From Escherichia coli (GTDB lineage Bacteria; Pseudomonadota; Gammaproteobacteria; Enterobacterales; Enterobacteriaceae): a stretch of 64,000 nucleotides of DNA. The stretch is from assembly GCF_030013205.1 (NCBI RefSeq), contig NZ_CP122648.1; one strand, given 5' to 3'. Below the pieces are notes generated by a model. The model was not told where the DNA came from. It ran no database searches and worked only from the letters and a program-made list of their open reading frames with translations. Numbering within the stretch: the stretch's first letter is position 1; every line of letters starts with the position of its first letter. Made by a program: the position numbers and the translations under genes. Positions 60 through 40,760 of this stretch are shown one piece after another.

Positions 60-383
60 AAAATCCGGTAGGGGGTGCGGAAACGGGTTACAAAGGTTAC
101 ACCCCCCTAAAACACACTATAATCATATGATTTTAAAACATATTTCTTGTAACCTTTTTGAGGTTACAGAAGGTTACACGAGGTTACAGCTCTCAAAAAC
201 AGATTAATTATCAATTAATTATAAATTTAACCTGTAACCAACAGTAACCACTACATAAAGGTTACATGTAACCCTGTTGTAACCCGTTTGTAACCTTTTA
301 AATTTATTATAATATATTGATATATAATACGTTTTTCTGTTTGTAACCTTTGTAACCCGTTTCCGCACCCCCCCCCGGATTTT
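60..383. repeat. iteron-like array: about 14 copies of heptamer GGTTACA/TGTAACC in AT-rich DNA, bracketed by about 43-bp near-perfect inverted repeats (60-102 and 341-383)
   Basis: direct reading; IR arms AAAATCCGGTAGGGGGTGCGGAAACGGGTTACAAAGGTTACA vs reverse complement of 341-383 differ at 1-2 positions. Confidence 0.8.
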
Positions 384-628
384 AGCGCGACCCTTTAAAA
401 TGTTAATTAAACTCACTAACTCTGTATCACTCTCATTAACTCTCTATGATTGAAATGTATCTCACTGCTGTTTAACTCTTTCTGATAATCAAGAAAGGAG
501 AGCAAAAAACTGATGGCGCTACCGCTGCAATATGGCCACCATCGCATTGCTGTTACCGTTGGCTTTGGCCAACAAAAAAGGCCAGTGGAAAACTGACCTC
601 TTTTGCTGTGAATGTAGTGTTCTGCGGG

Positions 629-1630
629 TTACTCTACTGGCTCTTTTTGTTCAGTGAATGCCATGTTAGCTATCGGGTTAAACCTCATGGCATCCGCCAG
701 ATAGTCGGGGGAAAAATGCGCATAAGTCATCGTTTGCTGGATAGTCGCATGTCCAAGAATCCGTTGTAATGTAACGATATTCCCACCGTTAATCATAAAG
801 TGTGTGGCAAATGTATGACGCATGACATGCGTAGCCTGCCCCTTCGGTAAATCCGGCTTCACCTCCTGAAGGATCTCCCGGAACTTCAGATAATCAACCT
901 GATACAACAACCCCGTCCGGCGGGTCTTAATCAGCGGCACGACCGAATCAGCCACAGGAACCGAACGGGATTTTCCGTTTTTGGTGTTAAAGAACGTCAC
1001 CCGGTTGCCAATGATGTGCTCTCCACGTAGTTCCGATGCTTCACTCCATCGGGCACCAGTAGAAAGACACAGAATGGCAACACGACGCGCATCACCCTCC
1101 AGTCGCTCAAGAAGCCGCTCAATCTCATCATCAGAAAGAAAGGCCATCTCTGTATTCTGAATTTTTAGCTTGCGTATACCGCGTACAGGGTTCGGGTTGT
1201 GAAAGACCTCAGCTTCAATCAGCACCGTGAACATGGTAGACAGAACGCACAAGTCACGATTAATGCTGGATGGCATTAAGCCGGCCTGTAATTTCTCTGA
1301 CCGATACTCAAGCATAAATTTTTGCGTCATCTGGCTGGCACGCGGATCTCCCATTTCACGAATCACTTTCTCCATCCGGATCCTGTAGGTATCACCGTAA
1401 GCCTGGTTACGGCCATCAAGCATCCACCATATATCAAGCAGCTCTGATAATCTCCGTCGATCAGCAGGTTTAGCCAGCCATGGGTTGTTATGGAAATTCT
1501 GTAAAATATGTTCTTTGAAGGCCTCCGCACTCCCTTTCCTGACAAAAATTTTACGTATCCGTTTGCCGTACGCCCCTTGGGGCCTGATATCGAGCAGCCA
1601 TCGCCCATCATCCATCTTTCTGATCGACAT
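629..1630 (-). CDS. int: tyrosine recombinase, P2-type phage integrase family
   Basis: 333 aa; N-terminus and C-terminal HxxR...Y catalytic region (HTFATHFMINGGNIVTLQRILGH...YAHF) resemble P2 Int; ATG and TAA verified on minus strand. Confidence 0.85.
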   Translation of the reverse strand: MSIRKMDDGRWLLDIRPQGAYGKRIRKIFVRKGSAEAFKEHILQNFHNNPWLAKPADRRRLSELLDIWWMLDGRNQAYGDTYRIRMEKVIREMGDPRASQMTQKFMLEYRSEKLQAGLMPSSINRDLCVLSTMFTVLIEAEVFHNPNPVRGIRKLKIQNTEMAFLSDDEIERLLERLEGDARRVAILCLSTGARWSEASELRGEHIIGNRVTFFNTKNGKSRSVPVADSVVPLIKTRRTGLLYQVDYLKFREILQEVKPDLPKGQATHVMRHTFATHFMINGGNIVTLQRILGHATIQQTMTYAHFSPDYLADAMRFNPIANMAFTEQKEPVE

Positions 1631-1632
1631 AC

Positions 1633-4302
1633 TTAAGCCCCCTCCTTGTTACTAAATATCCAGCATTTCAATACCTCCTTCTCTCTGGCCTCGGCTATTC
1701 CCCTCCCGGCGTTCGCCTGTCTGGATACCTCGCTACGGACGGGCTTGTATCCAATCAGCGATCGAGAACGGCCAGCCTTGAGAAGCTTTATCATTTCGGG
1801 ATTGGTTTGGGTCTTCACGTGGTGAACGGCGGCAACCTGCTCAAGTTGCGGGATACTGACGGCAAACTCATTCTGCCGTCCCTTGCCAAAATGATTTACG
1901 CCGTATGCTGTGATGCCGTCCAGATAGTCGAACGCCTCCCAGAACGCCATCACTTCCGGCAAGTCATCCATTACCGCTTTAGCCTGCTCCTCTGCCATTC
2001 GCTCCAGTTCCAGACATGTGGCATCAAGCCATTCATCCGGGATATCAATAACGCATTTCAGCGCCCTGACCAGTGCAATTAGTTGCGCGTGATTTTTGGC
2101 AATACGCTGATGGCGAATATTCTCGCAACCGTAAAGGCGGGTTGTTTCAGAATCCGAGAGTGCCATAAACAGATCCATAATCGCCCGCTCCTGGCTTACT
2201 GCCCGATGGATAAAACCTGATACCTGCTCAACGGGGTAAAGCTCCAGCCGTTTTGCTGCCAGTCGGCTATCTGGTGAGTGGCGTTTTTTATCGGTGTATA
2301 TACGTACCAGACGCTCGATAATTGCCGATGAGGCGTTTACCGTGGCATTCTGCGCAATCACGACAGCCCCTTTAAAAACGGGGTCATATGTGGCGTTATC
2401 ATTAGTTTTAACACCACGTACCCCAATACCACCGCCGTTATAGAGGCTTTTCAGGTTATCAAAGTCAAACGCACCTCTTTTTTGCGCATTGTCCCCCCGG
2501 TCTGCTTCAATCAGAACAACAGGTAATCCGGCGACCTGTCCAAAAGTTCGCTTCCAGCCTGATTCCGATCCTTTGGTTGGATCAACACCTTCATAGTTGT
2601 CACGGCCACACAAACGCCAACAAAAATCAATCAGCGTTGTTTTACCCGTTCCAGGCTCTCCGGTAATCTCAAGAAAAGGGTAAGACGTGTTTTTCTGCCT
2701 GATTTGTTCGCTGAACAACGAACCCAGCCAGAAGGCCAGGGTAATAATTCCCTTTTCACCAAAAGCCAGCCAGAGATCTTCCACCCAGGATATTGTGAAT
2801 TTATCCGGTTTTTTATAGTTAATCTGCAATATTGGTTTTTTATTCAATGGTTTTGCGTTTATGCCATCAATTTCAAAATAATCCTCTTCATTGATTTCGT
2901 AGGTTTTACCATTACAAACCGCGACATCATTAAACAGCCACGCGCCAATCTCTTTGTTGTATCCGATAAAATCCTGACCGATAACATTTTTTATTGCGGG
3001 AAGGTCATTTTTTATTAATGCATCAAGGTGCGCAGTCGTTCCGGTATAAATACCGCCTTTTGCCACATGCAACAGGCGTTTTTTAAATTCAGATGCGGAT
3101 GTTAATTGTCCTGATGTAAAGGTGTTTTTCACCGTCGCACCATCCGGGAACGTAACACGGAAGTAATACCATGCTTCATCCGTGTCATTGTTTCGAATGT
3201 AATAAAGCGGCGCCGGGTTACAGTTTGCGATTTCTTTTACAGCGCCGGATTCCTTAAGTGCAATTTTGCGCGCTTCATCTTCGTCAACATTTCGCTCATT
3301 TATGACGCGTTCAACAGCCTTCATATGGCGCTCAATATCCAGTTTGAACCAGAAAACACGGTTATCAAAAGTAAAATGAAATTCCTTTCGCTCACGAAAG
3401 GAAAACATTATCAGCGCCTTATCTCTCGGAGATTTTGCCAGCAATAAATCACCGTAATAACGGTATCTTTTCACATCATGGCCACGCAGCTTTCCGGCGA
3501 TGTGTAAATCATTCCAGTCGCGTTTATTGCTGTTTTTTCCTGGTAACGCCGCTGCCGTTCTCCAGCCGTCTTCGGCGCTGCGTTCTGCATGTTTTTTCGC
3601 ATAACGCTCACCCGCACGCCCGTTATCCAGCGCCCACACGATAACCGGACGGGGATTATCCCCGCACAGCTTCGCCAGCTCTTCCAGCGCCTTATCAGGG
3701 TAGTTTACGGCAGACATGACAGAAACGGCCGCAATGCCATTCTGGTTAAGGCTGATGGCATCAAAGATACCCTCACAAATCCAGATTTCTTTGGCCTTGC
3801 TTAAATCATCTCCCGGATAAGCCCACCACAACCCCTTGTAGCTGCCGGAAAAATTCGCCTTGCGCGCGAAGCGTTCCGGTCGGTCTATGATGCGCTCCCA
3901 CCACACGCCGTCAGCCAGTGTAAAACGCACAGTAGCGGCCTGTTCGCCGCTTTCCTTGTCCTGGTATCGCTCCTGAGTAAATGCTCCCTTCAGTGGCTCC
4001 ACAGCAATATTGCGTGCTTCCAGAAGATAAGCTGTCGCCGCTGCGTATGGATTGTCTTTCGTGCTGATATAGCGATCTGACCATGATGAAAACACATCCG
4101 GGTAAAGTTCTTTGGTCAACAGGTCTGTACCGCATTTATTTTCGCGCCCACAGTGCACGATGTACGGCCTTTCAAGGCTGGTAAAGAGCTCCTTCTTTCC
4201 ACATTGCGGACAAACACCATACCGGAGGTAGTTATTTTCTTCTTTGAAGTTGTAATCACGGATAAGACGGTTAATAATCTCTTTTCTGGTGTTATGTTTC
4301 AT
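1633..4302 (-). CDS. replicative primase-helicase (N-terminal zinc ribbon, TOPRIM-like primase core, C-terminal P-loop NTPase)
   Basis: 889 aa; CPQCG...HCGREN zinc motif, WICEGIFDAISL, Walker A GEPGTGKTT; stop lies 2 nt from integrase start. Confidence 0.8.
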   Translation of the reverse strand: MKHNTRKEIINRLIRDYNFKEENNYLRYGVCPQCGKKELFTSLERPYIVHCGRENKCGTDLLTKELYPDVFSSWSDRYISTKDNPYAAATAYLLEARNIAVEPLKGAFTQERYQDKESGEQAATVRFTLADGVWWERIIDRPERFARKANFSGSYKGLWWAYPGDDLSKAKEIWICEGIFDAISLNQNGIAAVSVMSAVNYPDKALEELAKLCGDNPRPVIVWALDNGRAGERYAKKHAERSAEDGWRTAAALPGKNSNKRDWNDLHIAGKLRGHDVKRYRYYGDLLLAKSPRDKALIMFSFRERKEFHFTFDNRVFWFKLDIERHMKAVERVINERNVDEDEARKIALKESGAVKEIANCNPAPLYYIRNNDTDEAWYYFRVTFPDGATVKNTFTSGQLTSASEFKKRLLHVAKGGIYTGTTAHLDALIKNDLPAIKNVIGQDFIGYNKEIGAWLFNDVAVCNGKTYEINEEDYFEIDGINAKPLNKKPILQINYKKPDKFTISWVEDLWLAFGEKGIITLAFWLGSLFSEQIRQKNTSYPFLEITGEPGTGKTTLIDFCWRLCGRDNYEGVDPTKGSESGWKRTFGQVAGLPVVLIEADRGDNAQKRGAFDFDNLKSLYNGGGIGVRGVKTNDNATYDPVFKGAVVIAQNATVNASSAIIERLVRIYTDKKRHSPDSRLAAKRLELYPVEQVSGFIHRAVSQERAIMDLFMALSDSETTRLYGCENIRHQRIAKNHAQLIALVRALKCVIDIPDEWLDATCLELERMAEEQAKAVMDDLPEVMAFWEAFDYLDGITAYGVNHFGKGRQNEFAVSIPQLEQVAAVHHVKTQTNPEMIKLLKAGRSRSLIGYKPVRSEVSRQANAGRGIAEAREKEVLKCWIFSNKEGA

Positions 4303-4348: not shown

Positions 4349-4648
4349 TTACTCGTTGCTTATTGCTTTGGCAATCCCGGCGGTTTCGGCGCTATGCCAT
4401 GAAAAAATTCCGCCGGATGAATGCATACCAGATTTTATTGATTGTAATTCCCTATAAATAATGTTAGACAGAGATGCAATTTCTTCATTTATAATTTCTG
4501 CTGATGCTCCGCCATTTTTATCGTCAAAAACCACAGATATTAAACTGACGAGATTAATCACATCTGTGAGATCTTCCTTTGCACTTTCTGTAAAAAAGCC
4601 AACATATTCTCTATCTAAAAAATTTTCGCTATTCTGACGTTTAGACAT
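4349..4648 (-). CDS. hypothetical protein, 99 aa, AT-rich
   Basis: ORF track; low GC, no recognisable motif. Confidence 0.45.
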   Translation of the reverse strand: MSKRQNSENFLDREYVGFFTESAKEDLTDVINLVSLISVVFDDKNGGASAEIINEEIASLSNIIYRELQSIKSGMHSSGGIFSWHSAETAGIAKAISNE

Positions 4649-5121: not shown

Positions 5122-5304
5122 TTACCCCTCCATGATTTTTACTGCGCATTTGTGGGTTAATCGCCCCTGTTCATTCGTGCGGCTGTACTCCATGCGGCTG
5201 GCAGCACGCAGGGCATCATCACAGGTCTGATATTCCCTGACATGAAAAAACTGACGAACGTCGCCGCTCTGGCAGTTAATCAGGGTGATAAGGAGCTTAA
5301 ACAT
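5122..5304 (-). CDS. hypothetical small protein, about 60 aa (MFKLLITLINCQ...)
   Basis: ORF track 5122..5382; ATG overlaps stop of upstream 57-aa ORF (ATGTTTAA). Confidence 0.4.
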   Translation of the reverse strand: MFKLLITLINCQSGDVRQFFHVREYQTCDDALRAASRMEYSRTNEQGRLTHKCAVKIMEG

Positions 5305-5470
5305 TGCACGCCTCCCGGATACGAATACGGGCAACAGAGACCAGACGGGATGCCGGAAGCAGGGCGCGCGCTTCGCGCTCACTGGCGGCGGTAACGGTAT
5401 GAAGGCGGATATTTTTACCGTGGCACTGCATAAAGCGCCAGATAAAATCAGGGCGTGTTGATATAGCCAT
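5297..5470 (-). CDS. hypothetical small protein, about 57 aa (MAISTRPDFIWRF...)
   Basis: C-terminal part of track ORF 5297..5824; ATG preceded by AAGGAG; upstream part of the track ORF judged noncoding. Confidence 0.4.
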   Translation of the reverse strand: MAISTRPDFIWRFMQCHGKNIRLHTVTAASEREARALLPASRLVSVARIRIREACNV

Positions 5471-5594
5471 TTTGGCGGCTCCTTTGTCTAATTTACGGAG
5501 TCTCGCCAGCACGCTGCTAAACATGGTGGCGGGACGTAACAGGGTTAGCAGACTGGTGACAAAGAAACCAGCAGGCCTTACGGCCTCCCCATTA

Positions 5595-5718
5595 CGCCCC
5601 GCCATAATACGGGAAAGGGTGGTATTACGGGCACAAAAAAACCGCATTACGGAAATATAGCGGCTACCCGCTTTGTCAATCAGGCTGCTAAACCCGGCAC
5701 CCGCTTTATGAGGTGCGG
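5595..5718 (-). ncRNA. conserved three-block noncoding element, copy A (hairpin, then T7-terminated block, then ATTATGGCGGGGCG on minus strand); candidate sRNA or leader attenuator
   Basis: blocks CGCCCCGCCATAAT, GCACAAAAAAACCGC and CAGGCTGC.AAACCCGGCACCCG.TT..TGAGGTGC recur in same order and similar spacing at 59946-60075. Confidence 0.4.
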
Positions 5719-5865
5719 GCAAACGATACGCCATGACAAAAAAGCGAGTCAAGCAATATTGCAAATTATTTTTGCGTGATTGCGCTGAGTAATTGATTTT
5801 TAAGAGTAAAAAAGCCATAATCATTTCTGCCTATTATTTCTTATTGTTGGTTTCAGGTGCACTAA

Positions 5866-6377: not shown

Positions 6378-6599
6378 TTAAGCCTGAAAACGTTGTTGTT
6401 TTCTTTCTTCTATCCAGTCGATAATTTCCTCTTCAACCCATGCAACCGCACGAGGGCCTATTTTTATTGGTTTGGGGAATATATCCGATTTTATATCTTC
6501 GTAAATTCGAGCTCTCGATCTCCCTGTGATTTCAATGACTCTGGGGAGTCTTATTAATTTTTGAATCCGCCTTTCGCTGGTCTGTGAGTATGCTGACAT
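6378..6599 (-). CDS. alpA: AlpA-family transcriptional regulator / excisionase-like (prophage CP4-57 AlpA type)
   Basis: 73 aa; helix-turn-helix region ...RLPRVIEITGRSRARIYEDIKSDIFPKPIKIGPRAVAWVEEEIIDWI... typical of AlpA. Confidence 0.8.
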   Translation of the reverse strand: MSAYSQTSERRIQKLIRLPRVIEITGRSRARIYEDIKSDIFPKPIKIGPRAVAWVEEEIIDWIEERKQQRFQA

Positions 6600-7117: not shown

Positions 7118-7152
7118 AAAAAAATCGGCGTGTCCACATATTGTCCACGCCT
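7118..7152 (-). terminator. intrinsic terminator downstream of integrase (hairpin GGCGTG...CACGCC plus T7 on minus strand)
   Basis: seen in sequence about 45 nt after int stop. Confidence 0.5.
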
Positions 7153-7198: not shown

Positions 7199-8461
7199 TC
7201 AGTTTGTTTCGTTAGCCCATTTAAAATCATAGGGGGCAATATATGCCGTCTTGCAGGTGTCGAGATAATCAGCCCACCATTGCAACATTCGGCGGCGTTC
7301 CTGCATATGTTCAGCTCTGTGAACGTATGCAGCCCGGACACTGCCTCTTTCCCTGTGACTCATCTGAAGCTCAACGGCTTCTCTTGTCCACCTGCCTGAC
7401 TCTGTCAGCGCCGAACAGGCCATGGCCCTGAATCCGTGACCACAAATATCTTTTTTGGTGTCGTATCCCATGTGGCGTAATGCCTTGTTAATGGTGTTTT
7501 CGCTCATCGGTTTTATCTGGTAATGGTCGCCGGGGAAAATAAACACTTCATCACCGGATATATTTCTTATATCGTCAAGAAGCTGCATGGCCTGAGTGGG
7601 TAAAGGGATGGCGTGAGGGGTCCCCATTTTCGTTCCACGATATGAATATTTTACGCCTTCTATTTTTTCGCGTTCTGCTGGTATTACCCACATTGATTTA
7701 TCAAAATCAATTTCATTCCAACGAGCAAAGCGCAATTCACTTGAGCGAATAAAAATTAATAAATTTAATTTTAGTGCAAATTGCGTTAATAACCGTCCAT
7801 TCATCTTATGGTGGTAATCATTTATTTTGCCAAGTAATTCAGGTAATCGCTCAAGGGGAAGAGCGGGGCGATGTTTGGTTTTATTGGTTTCTATTGCACC
7901 GTTCAGTTCCTGTGCTGGATTGTATTTAATCATTCCATTCTGTACAGCGTAGCGCATAATGGCGTTCATTCGCTGCTTGTTACGAGATGCTGTCTCAAGC
8001 ACTCCTTTATCTTCCATTTTGCGTAAAGGAATCAGTAGATCCATGGTTGTGATCTCGTTAATTGGTCTTTTACCAAGAATGGGGAAGATGTGGTTTTCCA
8101 GGTCTTTTAAGACTTTTTGTGCGTGCAATTCGCTCCAGCCTTTTTTCCGGCTGTGCCACTCTCTGGCAACGTCTTCAAAAAGCACTATTTGAGGTTTTGG
8201 AGTGTGCAGTGGGTCAATGCCTTTAGCCAGGCTCGCCAGATATTCATCACGAGCGTTCCTTGCCTGTGCAAGTGTTACGGCAGGATAAATGCCTAAAGCT
8301 CGGGTCGTTTCTTTACCGTTGATAACCTTGCGAAAGCGCCAGTATTTTGAGCCGTTGGGGTGAACATAGAGATACAGCCCTTTCCCGTCACGAAGTTTTT
8401 TAATTTTGTTGTTGTCCTTATCTGGTTTGGCGTTACGTACAGCTACATCAGTCAGTTTCAT
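7199..8461 (-). CDS. int: P4-type (tRNA-associated) tyrosine integrase
   Basis: track ORF 7199..8503 is labelled '+', but the reverse complement from 8503 reads TTG GTT CGA ... ATG AAA CTG ACT and plus strand at 7199-7201 is the stop; likely ATG start at 8461 (MKLTDVAVRNAKPD...). Confidence 0.9.
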   Translation of the reverse strand: MKLTDVAVRNAKPDKDNNKIKKLRDGKGLYLYVHPNGSKYWRFRKVINGKETTRALGIYPAVTLAQARNARDEYLASLAKGIDPLHTPKPQIVLFEDVAREWHSRKKGWSELHAQKVLKDLENHIFPILGKRPINEITTMDLLIPLRKMEDKGVLETASRNKQRMNAIMRYAVQNGMIKYNPAQELNGAIETNKTKHRPALPLERLPELLGKINDYHHKMNGRLLTQFALKLNLLIFIRSSELRFARWNEIDFDKSMWVIPAEREKIEGVKYSYRGTKMGTPHAIPLPTQAMQLLDDIRNISGDEVFIFPGDHYQIKPMSENTINKALRHMGYDTKKDICGHGFRAMACSALTESGRWTREAVELQMSHRERGSVRAAYVHRAEHMQERRRMLQWWADYLDTCKTAYIAPYDFKWANETN

Positions 8462-8639
8462 TATGTTGCTCCTCCAGACGGGTACAAATAAAAATCGAAC
8501 CAAGCATACCCGTTTTTATACCCATTTTAATATGGGCTTCAGGCAAATTTAACGAGAGATAACGAGACAATGGAAGAGGTTTAACTCATTGAAAATCAAT
8601 GGGTAATGGTTTTTTCTGAGAGATTGCGAGAAGTTGCGA

Positions 8640-8714
8640 TGGTGTCCCCTGCAGGAATCGAACCTGCAATTAGCCCTTAGGAGGGGCTCGTTATATCCAT
8701 TTAACTAAGAGGAC
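8640..8714 (-). tRNA. argW: tRNA-Arg (anticodon CCU)
   Basis: reverse complement reads GTCCTCTTAGTTAAATGGATATAACGAGCCCCTCCTAAGGGCTAATTGCAGGTTCGATTCCTGCAGGGGACACCA with T-arm GGTTCGATTCC and CCA end. Confidence 0.9.
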
Positions 8715-8789
8715 AATGCGGCATGAGTATACCCGCTAATGGACTGCGGGGTAAGTACGCTGCCGCTCGATTGCTTAAACCCTCGCCAT

Positions 8790-39737: not shown

Positions 39738-40760
39738 ATGGGAAGAGATATAACGCTGTACCCTAAAAAAGCAACTAGAAACGAACTTAAAAATTACCTT
39801 GAAAATTTAGGTTTTAAAAGGTGTAAACATTTGTGGGAATGGCCCCAAGGAACGTTGAATTACTCTTGGTTTGATGATACGGACTTCAAATCTACAGATG
39901 GAGTTTCGGCTGATATATATCCTGTTTCAAATGACGAATTACACATATCTGGTAATAAATGGGCATTGCATGTGCGTAATTTATATAGCGCTAGTTGGCA
40001 TGATGTAAAAATGCTTAATGATGTTCTAAAAGGCGCAAGGAGTCTTTTTGGTGGAACACTTATAGGTGATTATGGGAAAAATAGGTACGCTCCTCTATGG
40101 AAGGATTCTAGTAGTCCGATCAGTCGTGGCATTTCTTCAATATTTAATCATGTCCATCATGAGATTTCCGCTGTTAAACATGCCTTACCTGAACCTTCTA
40201 TTAAATTAAACCTACCGGAAGATGGCGGCTTATCCGAATACTTTGATTACATGCAATGTATGGATCCCAGTAGAGTTATATATAATGGATTAGTACCTTT
40301 TGCGGTTGCTATGTTTGAATACTTTTTCTCTAGAGCTTTTCAAATACTTATAAAGTACGATCCTTTCGCAATAGCAAAAAGAACATCGTATAAGCAAAAA
40401 GTTGATTTTGATATTCTGCTTGAGATAGAGAAAGGAAATATTTCAATAGAAAGTGTTATTGCAAGAAATTACACTTTTCAAAACTTAACCCACCTAAACA
40501 AAGCATATAAAGAGTGGCTGGATATAGATGTGAGAGCGATTCTTTATAAGAAAAAAAGAATTGGAAAATCAGTTGATTTTCTTGAGAATCGAATTTCTGA
40601 AATCATACAATATAGACATGGGATAGTTCATCACTTTGAGTTGGATAGGACCTTAAATCGGGATGGATATATTCATATATTAGATGCGCTAGAAAAAAGC
40701 ATAATTGAATTTATCCATTACATAGAAGGCAAATACAAATTTAAATTAAATGCGTATTAA
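39738..40760 (+). CDS. hypothetical protein, 340 aa, strongly AT-rich accessory gene between ogr and D; no recognisable domain
   Basis: ORF track; opposite strand to flanking late genes; own AT-rich upstream region with direct repeats; hairpin terminator after stop. Confidence 0.6.
   Translation: MGRDITLYPKKATRNELKNYLENLGFKRCKHLWEWPQGTLNYSWFDDTDFKSTDGVSADIYPVSNDELHISGNKWALHVRNLYSASWHDVKMLNDVLKGARSLFGGTLIGDYGKNRYAPLWKDSSSPISRGISSIFNHVHHEISAVKHALPEPSIKLNLPEDGGLSEYFDYMQCMDPSRVIYNGLVPFAVAMFEYFFSRAFQILIKYDPFAIAKRTSYKQKVDFDILLEIEKGNISIESVIARNYTFQNLTHLNKAYKEWLDIDVRAILYKKKRIGKSVDFLENRISEIIQYRHGIVHHFELDRTLNRDGYIHILDALEKSIIEFIHYIEGKYKFKLNAY

Follow-up and report, generated by a model that had tools for sequence, protein, structure and literature searches.

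A P2-type integrase gene directly behind the primase gene of a putative P2-dependent satellite at argW in Escherichia coli

Phage satellites hijack the regulators, capsids and packaging of their helpers. We describe an element at the tRNA gene argW of Escherichia coli ETEC4079 that has the look of a P2-dependent phage satellite and encodes two integrases, one of them directly behind its primase. The analysis concerns a stretch of 64,000 nucleotides (nt) from contig NZ_CP122648.1 (RefSeq assembly GCF_030013205.1), called the window below, of which positions 1 to about 8660 hold the right two-thirds of the satellite, itself about 12.7 kb long. Features to the left of the window were read from the annotated ETEC4079 record NZ_CP122643.1 (locus L001), which is identical to the window. 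Among the other loci compared, L014 is also from ETEC4079, L004, L008, L009 and L010 are satellites inserted between hpt and gcd, L015 comes from Yersinia and L018 from Enterobacter sp. PTB. The gene set of the element comprises a P4-type integrase (the outer integrase), an AlpA-type regulator, an Icd-like gene, small open reading frames (ORFs), a primase, a P2-type integrase (the inner integrase), ogr/delta, a capsid gene and MazEF (Table 1); to the left of the window the annotated order is ogr/delta, two genes annotated as unknown, 'P2 family major capsid protein', MazEF and then intS. Dependence on a P2-type helper is suggested by three features: the ogr/delta gene, which lies just left of the window (annotation and phrog_603), the gpN-type capsid gene and, in the part of the element outside the window, what looks by eye like a cos sequence.

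The initial annotation of the window had reported a primase-helicase gene that stops 2 nt before the start of a P2-type integrase gene, and the junction reads exactly so (TAA-GT-ATG, 1635-1628). A Shine-Dalgarno sequence, AAGGAGG, lies within the end of the primase gene, 10 nt ahead of the integrase ATG. The two genes stand equally close in all related loci inspected in E. coli, Yersinia and Salmonella, the junction of related satellites taking the form of a 2-nt gap, a 4-nt gap or a 4-nt (ATGA) overlap. In the proximity of stop and start, the internal Shine-Dalgarno sequence and the conservation of the junction, the pair has the sequence attributes of translationally coupled genes, and such an arrangement is evidently not a product of chance. 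The upstream gene product, of 889 amino acids (aa), combines Toprim_2/Toprim_3 matches (E 2e-12) with a GEPGTGKT P-loop and a weak DUF5906 match, and corresponds to phrog_1139, 'DNA primase', with an E value of 4e-302; no relative was found by sequence in PDB. The primase label is thus solid by domain content, and the helicase label a probable one. This protein is 42-51% identical to the replication protein of the P2-like phages phiCTX, RSY1 and ESSI2_ev239. The replication operon of the satellite runs from a small variable ORF through the primase and the P2-type integrase to an intrinsic terminator, of which the L004 version shows compensatory changes. The variable ORF, of 99 aa in the window, has no match in Pfam, PHROG or NCBIfam.

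Sequence, domains and catalytic residues make the inner integrase a bona fide member of the P2/HP1 integrase family, with predicted recombination activity. Its Pfam domains are Int_N (PF24624) and Phage_integrase (PF00589), with E values of 1.4e-28 and 1.6e-15, and its best PDB matches are the 'Integrase' entries 5c6k/5dor (5c6k, E 5e-95) and the HP1 integrase 1aih (E 8e-46). Its identity is 55% with P2 Int and 87.5% with the integrase of Peduoviridae phage vB_EcoM-569R5. All eight satellite alleles that were aligned are full length and keep the catalytic hexad R194, K217, H268, R271, H294 and Y303. Between ETEC4079 and L008, synonymous divergence (dS) is 0.34 and the ratio of nonsynonymous to synonymous divergence (dN/dS) 0.08, compared with 0.36 and 0.16 for the neighbouring primase. 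Because dN/dS is this low at the same dS as the flanking gene, the allele shared by these two satellites was probably inherited vertically with the backbone under constraint. By the same measure the inner integrase is a functional gene under strong purifying selection, stricter than that on the primase. The initial annotation recognised two integrases of different subfamilies and allowed that one might prove a decayed fragment; both are intact and full length. The genomic setting of the inner integrase is not that of a phage integrase: the gene follows the primase instead of standing in an int-C/cox lysogeny switch, the element annotation contains neither C nor cox, and no cognate attP (a core with paired arm repeats) was found at the 3' end of the gene. 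A PADLOC search for defence systems gave no match for the inner integrase.

Table 1. Features of the satellite and related loci (window coordinates unless a locus label is given)
Feature	Position	Strand	Basis or remark
Predicted iteron replication origin	60-383	.	42-nt inverted-repeat arms 60-101 / 342-383, 13 copies of GGTTACA, AT-rich centre
Intrinsic terminator ending the primase-integrase operon	570-608	-	17-bp stem, flanking A-tract and U-tract, dG -23.7 kcal/mol, z -4.45
Inner P2-type tyrosine integrase, 333 aa, intact	629-1630	-	Int_N + Phage_integrase
Coupling junction	1628-1647	-	AAGGAGG 1647-1641, TAA 1635-1633, GT 1632-1631, ATG 1630-1628
Toprim + P-loop replication protein (primase, probable helicase), 889 aa	1633-4302	-	ORF, phrog_1139, Pfam
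99-aa ORF directly upstream of primase, in same operon	4349-4648	-	Hypervariable
Icd-like (host cell-division inhibitor-like) protein	5297-5824	-	NCBIfam NF033153, E 2e-11
AlpA-type excisionase/regulator	6378-6599	-	phrog_2790, phrog_66; orthologues in L015 and L016 with PF05930 Phage_AlpA
Terminator hairpin of outer integrase	7127-7151	-	Contains GTGGACA-N4-GTGGACA, P2-family arm-type motif
Outer P4-type integrase	7199-8461 (alternative end 8503)	-	NF007246, E 5e-63; annotated 420-aa protein; 137 nt from argW
tRNA-Arg(CCT) argW	8640-8714	-	ARAGORN; 3' ~20 nt = attL core
340-aa ORF	39738-40760	+	Left edge of P2-like prophage region
P2-like prophage integrase, 5' part	63254-64000	+	Exceeds window; prophage apparently complete, adjoins pdxB
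Degenerate argW 3'-end repeat	L001 20695-20714 (window -4031 to -4012)		Between MazEF and intS
MazE/MazF-type toxin-antitoxin	L001 20932-21524		att-distal end of satellite
gpN-type capsid protein, 423 aa, with the 236-aa gene before it	L001 21568-23549 (~1.2-3.2 kb left of window position 1)		phrog_70, E 3e-76; ~118-aa N-terminal extension
CPS-53/KpLE1-like remnant	L001 ~7435-20700		P22-type prophage remnant with IntS
dmsA-serS P2-like prophage	L014 ~22740-43790		Defective
350-aa gene of hpt-gcd satellites	L004 15447-16499; L008 16477-17517; L009 16468-17499; L010 16453-17505		Between outer integrase and alpA

Downstream of the inner integrase lies an inverted-repeat block whose arms enclose 240 nt of AT-rich sequence, with copies of GGTTACA spread across the whole region. 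Its layout and orientation are identical in seven related loci. Identity in this block tracks the primase and is independent of the integrase allele: it is 77% between loci with primases about 90% identical, and 97-100% between loci whose primases are likewise 97-100% identical. When lineages are compared, changes in one arm are matched in the other (TGCGGAAACGGGTTACAAAGGTTACA versus TGCGCAAAGCGGTTACAACGGTTACA), which indicates selection for symmetry or co-evolution with the primase. In Enterobacter (L018) the iteron block directly follows the primase and precedes the integrase. These patterns identify the block as the iteron origin of the primase. Two other roles were considered and rejected. 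An invertible switch of the Fim type is at odds with the same orientation in all seven loci and with repeats that are iterons co-varying with the primase, and GGTTACA cannot be the arm site of the inner integrase when the iterons stay unchanged beside unrelated integrase alleles. The phage whose integrase is 87.5% identical has no GGTTACA, and its integrase gene has GTGTCCAT repeats at the 3' end.

A search with the 3' end of the tRNA gene, which the initial annotation had proposed, located the far boundary of the element: a degenerate repeat of the argW 3' end (GATTtCTGCAGGG-ACACCAT) lies between MazEF and intS, about 4 kb left of the window. Because the argW 3'-end repeats bracket both integrases, a single element holds the two. 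The distinct P4-type integrase described beside argW is indeed there, and it is of the Arm-DNA-bind type. The idea that the two integrases mark tandem elements does not hold, the true tandem partner of the satellite being a separate CPS-53/KpLE1-like P22-type prophage remnant with IntS. This remnant contains, besides IntS, gtrA-type O-antigen modification genes, IS1 and truncated head and tail genes, with partial argW repeats at its bounds, including one at its far end.

The inner integrase recurs wherever the satellite was found. With the primase end, the integrase and the origin as a joint query in E. coli, all of the best 60 matches span about 2.4 kb, so that the integrase is present in every one of them, and all are unbroken for 630 nt downstream of the integrase gene. 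The genome-contig scan with the primase reaches close relatives only and added one locus, from Escherichia sp.; wider relatives were obtained by protein search and contig look-ups. In this way the primase-integrase pair was found in satellites of Yersinia enterocolitica (primase 77% identical to that of the window), Salmonella enterica (59%) and Enterobacter sp. (54%). The pair is accompanied there by Ogr_Delta, a regulator of the AlpA or HTH_17 type and an outer integrase with Arm-DNA-bind_3. A P2-type capsid gene is present in the Yersinia and Salmonella ones. The integrase directly follows the primase except in Enterobacter, where the origin intervenes. Judged by this distribution, the inner integrase is a fixed core gene of the satellite family across four genera. 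The suggestion that an integrase had been recruited as cargo was therefore right as to its P2-like phage ancestry and wrong in treating as accessory a gene of fixed position across these genera. The primase relatives of 52% identity or less belong to complete P2-like phages, in which the integrase occupies its usual int-C/cox position. Since these phage relatives keep the integrase elsewhere, the coupling is a feature of the satellites; a module inherited from phages was rejected on the same ground, after phiCTX, RSY1, ESSI2 and three prophages were compared. The locus defines a common and apparently undescribed satellite lineage, with over 1,000 sequences in its primase clusters.

Two observations were made in passing on the Enterobacter sp. 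PTB satellite (L018 1-2627). Helper and satellite stand in tandem there, the satellite following directly on the gpD-ogr end of a P2-like prophage, and the satellite has PF10554 (Ash) and PF25738 (Derepression) genes, which are without counterparts in the E. coli members.

Of the loci inspected for their insertion site, five lie between hpt and gcd and two at argW. The outer integrase is of the P4 type at argW and is a different protein of about 400 aa at hpt-gcd. It stands at one end of the satellite in all 11 loci inspected, and among those of E. coli and Yersinia its type goes with the chromosomal site. An identical inner integrase protein was found at both argW and hpt-gcd, and four inner alleles occur at hpt-gcd behind one type of outer integrase. 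From this partition, the insertion site is evidently set by the outer integrase, not the inner one.

P2-type phages carry two arm repeats, GTGTCCAY, at the 3' end of the integrase gene, with the core within about 150 nt. Sensitive alignment of the phage att region found nothing matching in the satellite that carries the window allele. The initial annotation had also suggested searching for P2 att cores; the 20-nt core AAAGCGCCCGCAGGCGCTTT of a P2-like prophage between dmsA and serS in the same genome was absent from the 35-kb region, even with up to three mismatches. A scan for arm pairs in six E. coli satellites, evaluated against shuffled sequences, gave none in the hpt-gcd satellites and a single pair in the argW ones, and no complete attP with paired arms in any of those scanned. 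This sole arm-like pair, GTGGACA-N4-GTGGACA, lies within the terminator of the outer integrase. It has the 11-bp period of P2-family arm repeats against a chance expectation of at most 0.13 per element; L005 (E. coli) and L015 (Yersinia) retain it, and the hpt-gcd satellites do not have it. An attP downstream of the inner integrase or elsewhere in the satellite was rejected on these results.

Among the hpt-gcd satellites L004, L008, L009 and L010, identity is 97-99.8% in the primase and 97-100% in the origin, and only 47-58% in the integrase. Along L008 and L010, sliding identity is 99-100% in the primase, 43-55% in the integrase and 94-100% in the DNA downstream; L004 and L005 present the converse, with 99-100% in the integrase and 93-97% in the flanks. 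Left breakpoints fall at the Shine-Dalgarno sequence or near codon 17, and right breakpoints in the last 25 codons or so. Because the right crossovers fall there, the Escherichia alleles have in common a satellite-specific acidic C-terminal tail (the last 13-25 codons, approximately), which is not conserved in Yersinia, Salmonella and Enterobacter. Divergence peaks at residues 17-180, and in one pair measured by domain residues 57-180 are about 41% identical. The stretch past residue 57 is the core-binding domain, which sets integration specificity in P2-like integrases (PMC3448106). The alignments thus indicate that the specificity-determining middle of the inner integrase is exchanged as a cassette among near-identical satellites. 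Since near-identical backbones carry very different core-binding domains, the target of the inner integrase most likely lies outside the element.

Three of the four E. coli allele classes are nearest to a Peduoviridae integrase and not to another satellite allele, the nearest phage integrases being those of vB_EcoM-569R5 (87.5%), Chuche/Xuanwuvirus P884B11 (82%) and P88 (77%). Integrase similarity is also decoupled from the primase tree, as the Salmonella integrase is 75% identical to that of the window and the primases 59%. The 99-aa ORF upstream of the primase varies as well: where primases are 97-100% identical its alleles are 33-84% identical, differing in the middle while their ends are conserved. 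The search for a further block that varies together with the integrase allele ended in rejection: whole-element comparisons yielded two other variable genes, this ORF and a 350-aa gene beside the outer integrase, and neither tracks the allele. In the hpt-gcd satellites the 350-aa gene lies between the outer integrase and alpA and forms a third swapped block (34-53% nucleotide identity between L008 and L010); L004 and L010 have it in common despite different integrases, and its slot may be a hotspot for accessory or defence genes.

The same genome offers a candidate target. The initial annotation had pointed to a paralogue at the window's right end, within the P2-like prophage. A homologue is present there, but a distant one of a different allele class, only 48% identical to the inner integrase, and a closer one (87.9%) is encoded by the prophage between dmsA and serS. 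Between the integrase of this prophage and the inner integrase, identity rises from 61% in the arm domain to 90% in the core-binding and 98% in the catalytic domain. By this resemblance we consider the dmsA-serS prophage a candidate target of the inner integrase. It has deleted or truncated replication, portal, terminase, scaffold and capsid genes, and keeps its tail genes, ogr, C, cox and integrase. The integrase of the window prophage is about 80-82% identical to the satellite allele of L004/L005, and its full gene, with GTGTCCAC arm repeats, was found in L012.

To our knowledge, the att sites of P2-like phages are the only known substrates of such integrases. The reading we favour, tentatively and at somewhat less than even confidence, is that the inner integrase acts in trans on the att sites of helpers, supplying the integrase that a P2-type prophage expressing Cox does not make. 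In P2, the C-integrase promoter is repressed by Cox, which also blocks integration, promotes excision and activates P4 (PMC3936717). A satellite that switched on its replication operon would make the inner integrase along with the primase. Cox in the helper would shut off the helper's own integrase promoter, yet excision needs integrase; a matching integrase made by the satellite could fill this gap, and the helper prophage would be cut out. Once excised, the helper could replicate and serve the satellite, and a swap of alleles would retune which helper attachment site is recognised. A broader proposal, which we regard as doubtful, is that of an Enterobacterales satellite family with a 'helper activation kit', in which a helper-matched integrase excises and mobilises a non-excising P2-like prophage and the core-binding cassette tracks the att specificity of the helper. 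It would be the first satellite recombinase aimed at a helper genome.

Several observations weigh against excision of the helper in trans. The activity in trans and its target are both deduced from sequence. The arm-binding domain is the part least like that of the dmsA-serS prophage integrase, at only 61% identity, and the candidate target is itself defective, having lost replication and head genes. In favour of the reading, a second copy at the level of DNA similarity of the dmsA-serS integrase occurs in 7 of the 20 genomes with the window allele class, compared with about 5.6% of other genomes. This count, however, ignores clonal relatedness, and the nature of the second copy was checked in ETEC4079 alone; such co-occurrence is also predicted by simple helper dependence or by gene flow. 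By blastn, four of six satellite-bearing genomes have no other P2-type integrase. The fourth allele class (L009) has no phage relative above 58%, and the nearest phage alleles are 77-89% identical with a dS of 0.4-0.55, so that the allele pool looks old and satellite-resident, and not constantly resampled from helpers. Alleles of the 99-aa ORF follow the integrase class partly, not strictly. Finally, the satellite P4, as far as we know, needs no excision of its helper.

The same evidence for a target in trans could be read the other way, with the integrase acting on helper att DNA or on the helper integrase to the helper's cost. It might poison helper integrase tetramers, or bias the integration of an infecting helper so that helper DNA is left unpackaged or the choice between lysis and lysogeny suits the satellite. 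As four of the six genomes lack a resident P2-type integrase, satellites may usually meet their helper as an infecting phage; genes involved in conflict typically show diversity of the cassette kind, and the acidic tail of the Escherichia alleles is specific to satellites. The tail, however, is not conserved in the other three genera, and the position of the crossovers accounts for it. A pure binding decoy would have no use for the full catalytic hexad, and forced integration during lytic growth is hard to reconcile with the block that Cox places on integrative recombination (PMC3936717). An action against or steering the helper is therefore, in our estimate, unlikely.

The position of the gene, always adjoining the primase/origin module and, Enterobacter apart, directly after the primase in the same operon, would also suit a role in replicon housekeeping, in which the integrase resolves multimers of the satellite circle near the origin and gives monomers for packaging. 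P2-type packaging does use monomeric circles. But origins and flanks that are 97-100% identical carry alleles 47-58% identical, and one site in cis cannot serve them all; the hpt-gcd satellites are without arm-type repeats, the iterons co-vary with the primase and not with the integrase, and we know of no arm-dependent integrase that acts as a resolvase. This role seems to us improbable.

Chances are slim that the inner integrase is an alternative integration module, inserting the satellite at a helper-type attB when its primary site is occupied. The gene is complete and close to working phage integrases, and the argW-type satellites do have one arm-like repeat pair. Nevertheless, the satellite with the window allele offers neither a matching core nor a P/P' arm set, and those at hpt-gcd offer no arm pair. 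The region where a P2-type attP would lie is unbroken in all of the best 60 matches, and the outer integrase keeps its place at one end in each of the 11 loci, its type following the site in E. coli and Yersinia. Equally slim is the prospect that the gene has no present function, being left over from the P2-like ancestry of the module and kept intact-looking by repeated gene conversion with integrases of helpers or satellites. Relatives of the primase, ogr, capsid and integrase genes all occur in P2-like phages, and recombination with homologous integrase genes clearly occurs. Against this, the dN/dS of 0.08 between satellite copies, at the dS of the flanking primase, speaks for vertical descent under constraint, the gene is never missing in the best 60 genomes or in the four genera, and the coupling is kept in the three genera where the integrase directly follows the primase. 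As for two tandem elements with an integrase each, argW does hold an array of satellite and CPS-53-like remnant, but the att repeat lies beyond MazEF and not between the integrases, the inner integrase sits between the primase and the primase's own origin, and the layout is identical at another chromosomal site, which leaves this explanation hardly any room.

Among known systems, P4 and the P4-like satellites are the most similar in outline. They too are small elements at tRNA genes, with a P4-type integrase, an AlpA-type regulator, Ogr/Delta, their own primase and iteron origin, a cos-like sequence and a terminal toxin-antitoxin; the relatives and helper-type genes of the present element are P2-like. 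P4 differs in its alpha-type primase (PF03288), that of the present element being of the Toprim/P-loop type of phiCTX/ESSI2, while the element encodes in addition a gpN-type capsid protein, and its replication operon includes a second integrase, of the P2 type. The P4-like components have been defined as int, alpA, epsilon, alpha, sid, delta and psu (PMC8628076). In the element we find an integrase at the att end, AlpA and Delta (Ogr_Delta). An alpha of the PF03288 type is lacking, the families matched by the primase being only Toprim_2/3 and, weakly, P-loop ones. Sid and Psu are missing from the annotation of the element, the published custom Sid profile lying outside the search. For epsilon (PF10554), the 99-aa and 175-aa ORFs gave no Pfam match, the other small ORFs not having been run against Pfam; two 72-aa ORFs had no match in PHROG or NCBIfam. 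An epsilon-like derepressor upstream of the primase was rejected as a candidate, since neither a Pfam match nor similarity to the PF25738 protein of Enterobacter was found.

With the Int/attP/Cox module of P2, the inner integrase shares its family (domains, catalytic residues and up to 87.5% identity). The phage gene stands in an int-C/cox switch at the prophage edge with attP, whereas the satellite gene follows a primase and has its own tail, and no attP was found for it. The Toprim-primase P2-like phages (phiCTX, RSY1, ESSI2_ev239/Evevirus and the prophages L019-L021) have a replication protein 42-52% identical, a P2-type integrase, ogr and gpN. They are full phages, in which the integrase lies at the att end by C/cox, or is of the P4 type (RSY1), and is never coupled to the primase. 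Capsid-forming phage-inducible chromosomal islands (PICIs) resemble the element in encoding their own major capsid protein. They differ from it in lineage and helper type, and the element has a gpN-type capsid gene with one upstream gene annotated as unknown, and no portal, connectors or small terminase in its annotation; it is not a capsid-forming PICI. In the pri-rep-ori region of Staphylococcus aureus pathogenicity islands (SaPIs) and other PICIs, iterons flank an AT-rich core beside the initiator gene, as is generally known of the SaPI origin. In most members of the satellite family, unlike these, an integrase gene separates initiator from origin. We found no mention of the inner P2-type integrase in PMC8628076, PMC10085698, PMC9122126 or the preprint 10.64898/2026.02.27.708500, and the literature searched, whose coverage leaves out most subscription journals, contains no account of it or of P4-like satellites that encode gpN.

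The remaining observations concern the att-distal part of the satellite. The gpN-type capsid gene is preceded by a 236-aa gene with no Pfam or PHROG match, and in L005 this capsid pair is placed otherwise, between alpA and the Icd-like gene. MazEF occupies the att-distal end in both the argW and the hpt-gcd members, and Hok/Gef or RelB/ParE replace it in other relatives.

Whatever the mechanism, a lineage that has a gpN-type capsid gene and is without Sid and Psu fails four of the seven P4-like marker genes. Cassette replacement within an element otherwise 97-100% identical also constitutes a clean natural experiment on integrase specificity. If the inner integrase does act on helper att sites, a satellite recombinase would add a layer of control over whether and when a helper prophage leaves the chromosome, which would explain how satellites can use P2-type prophages that are not inducible alone, and the integrase allele would provide a simple genetic marker predicting satellite-helper pairs.

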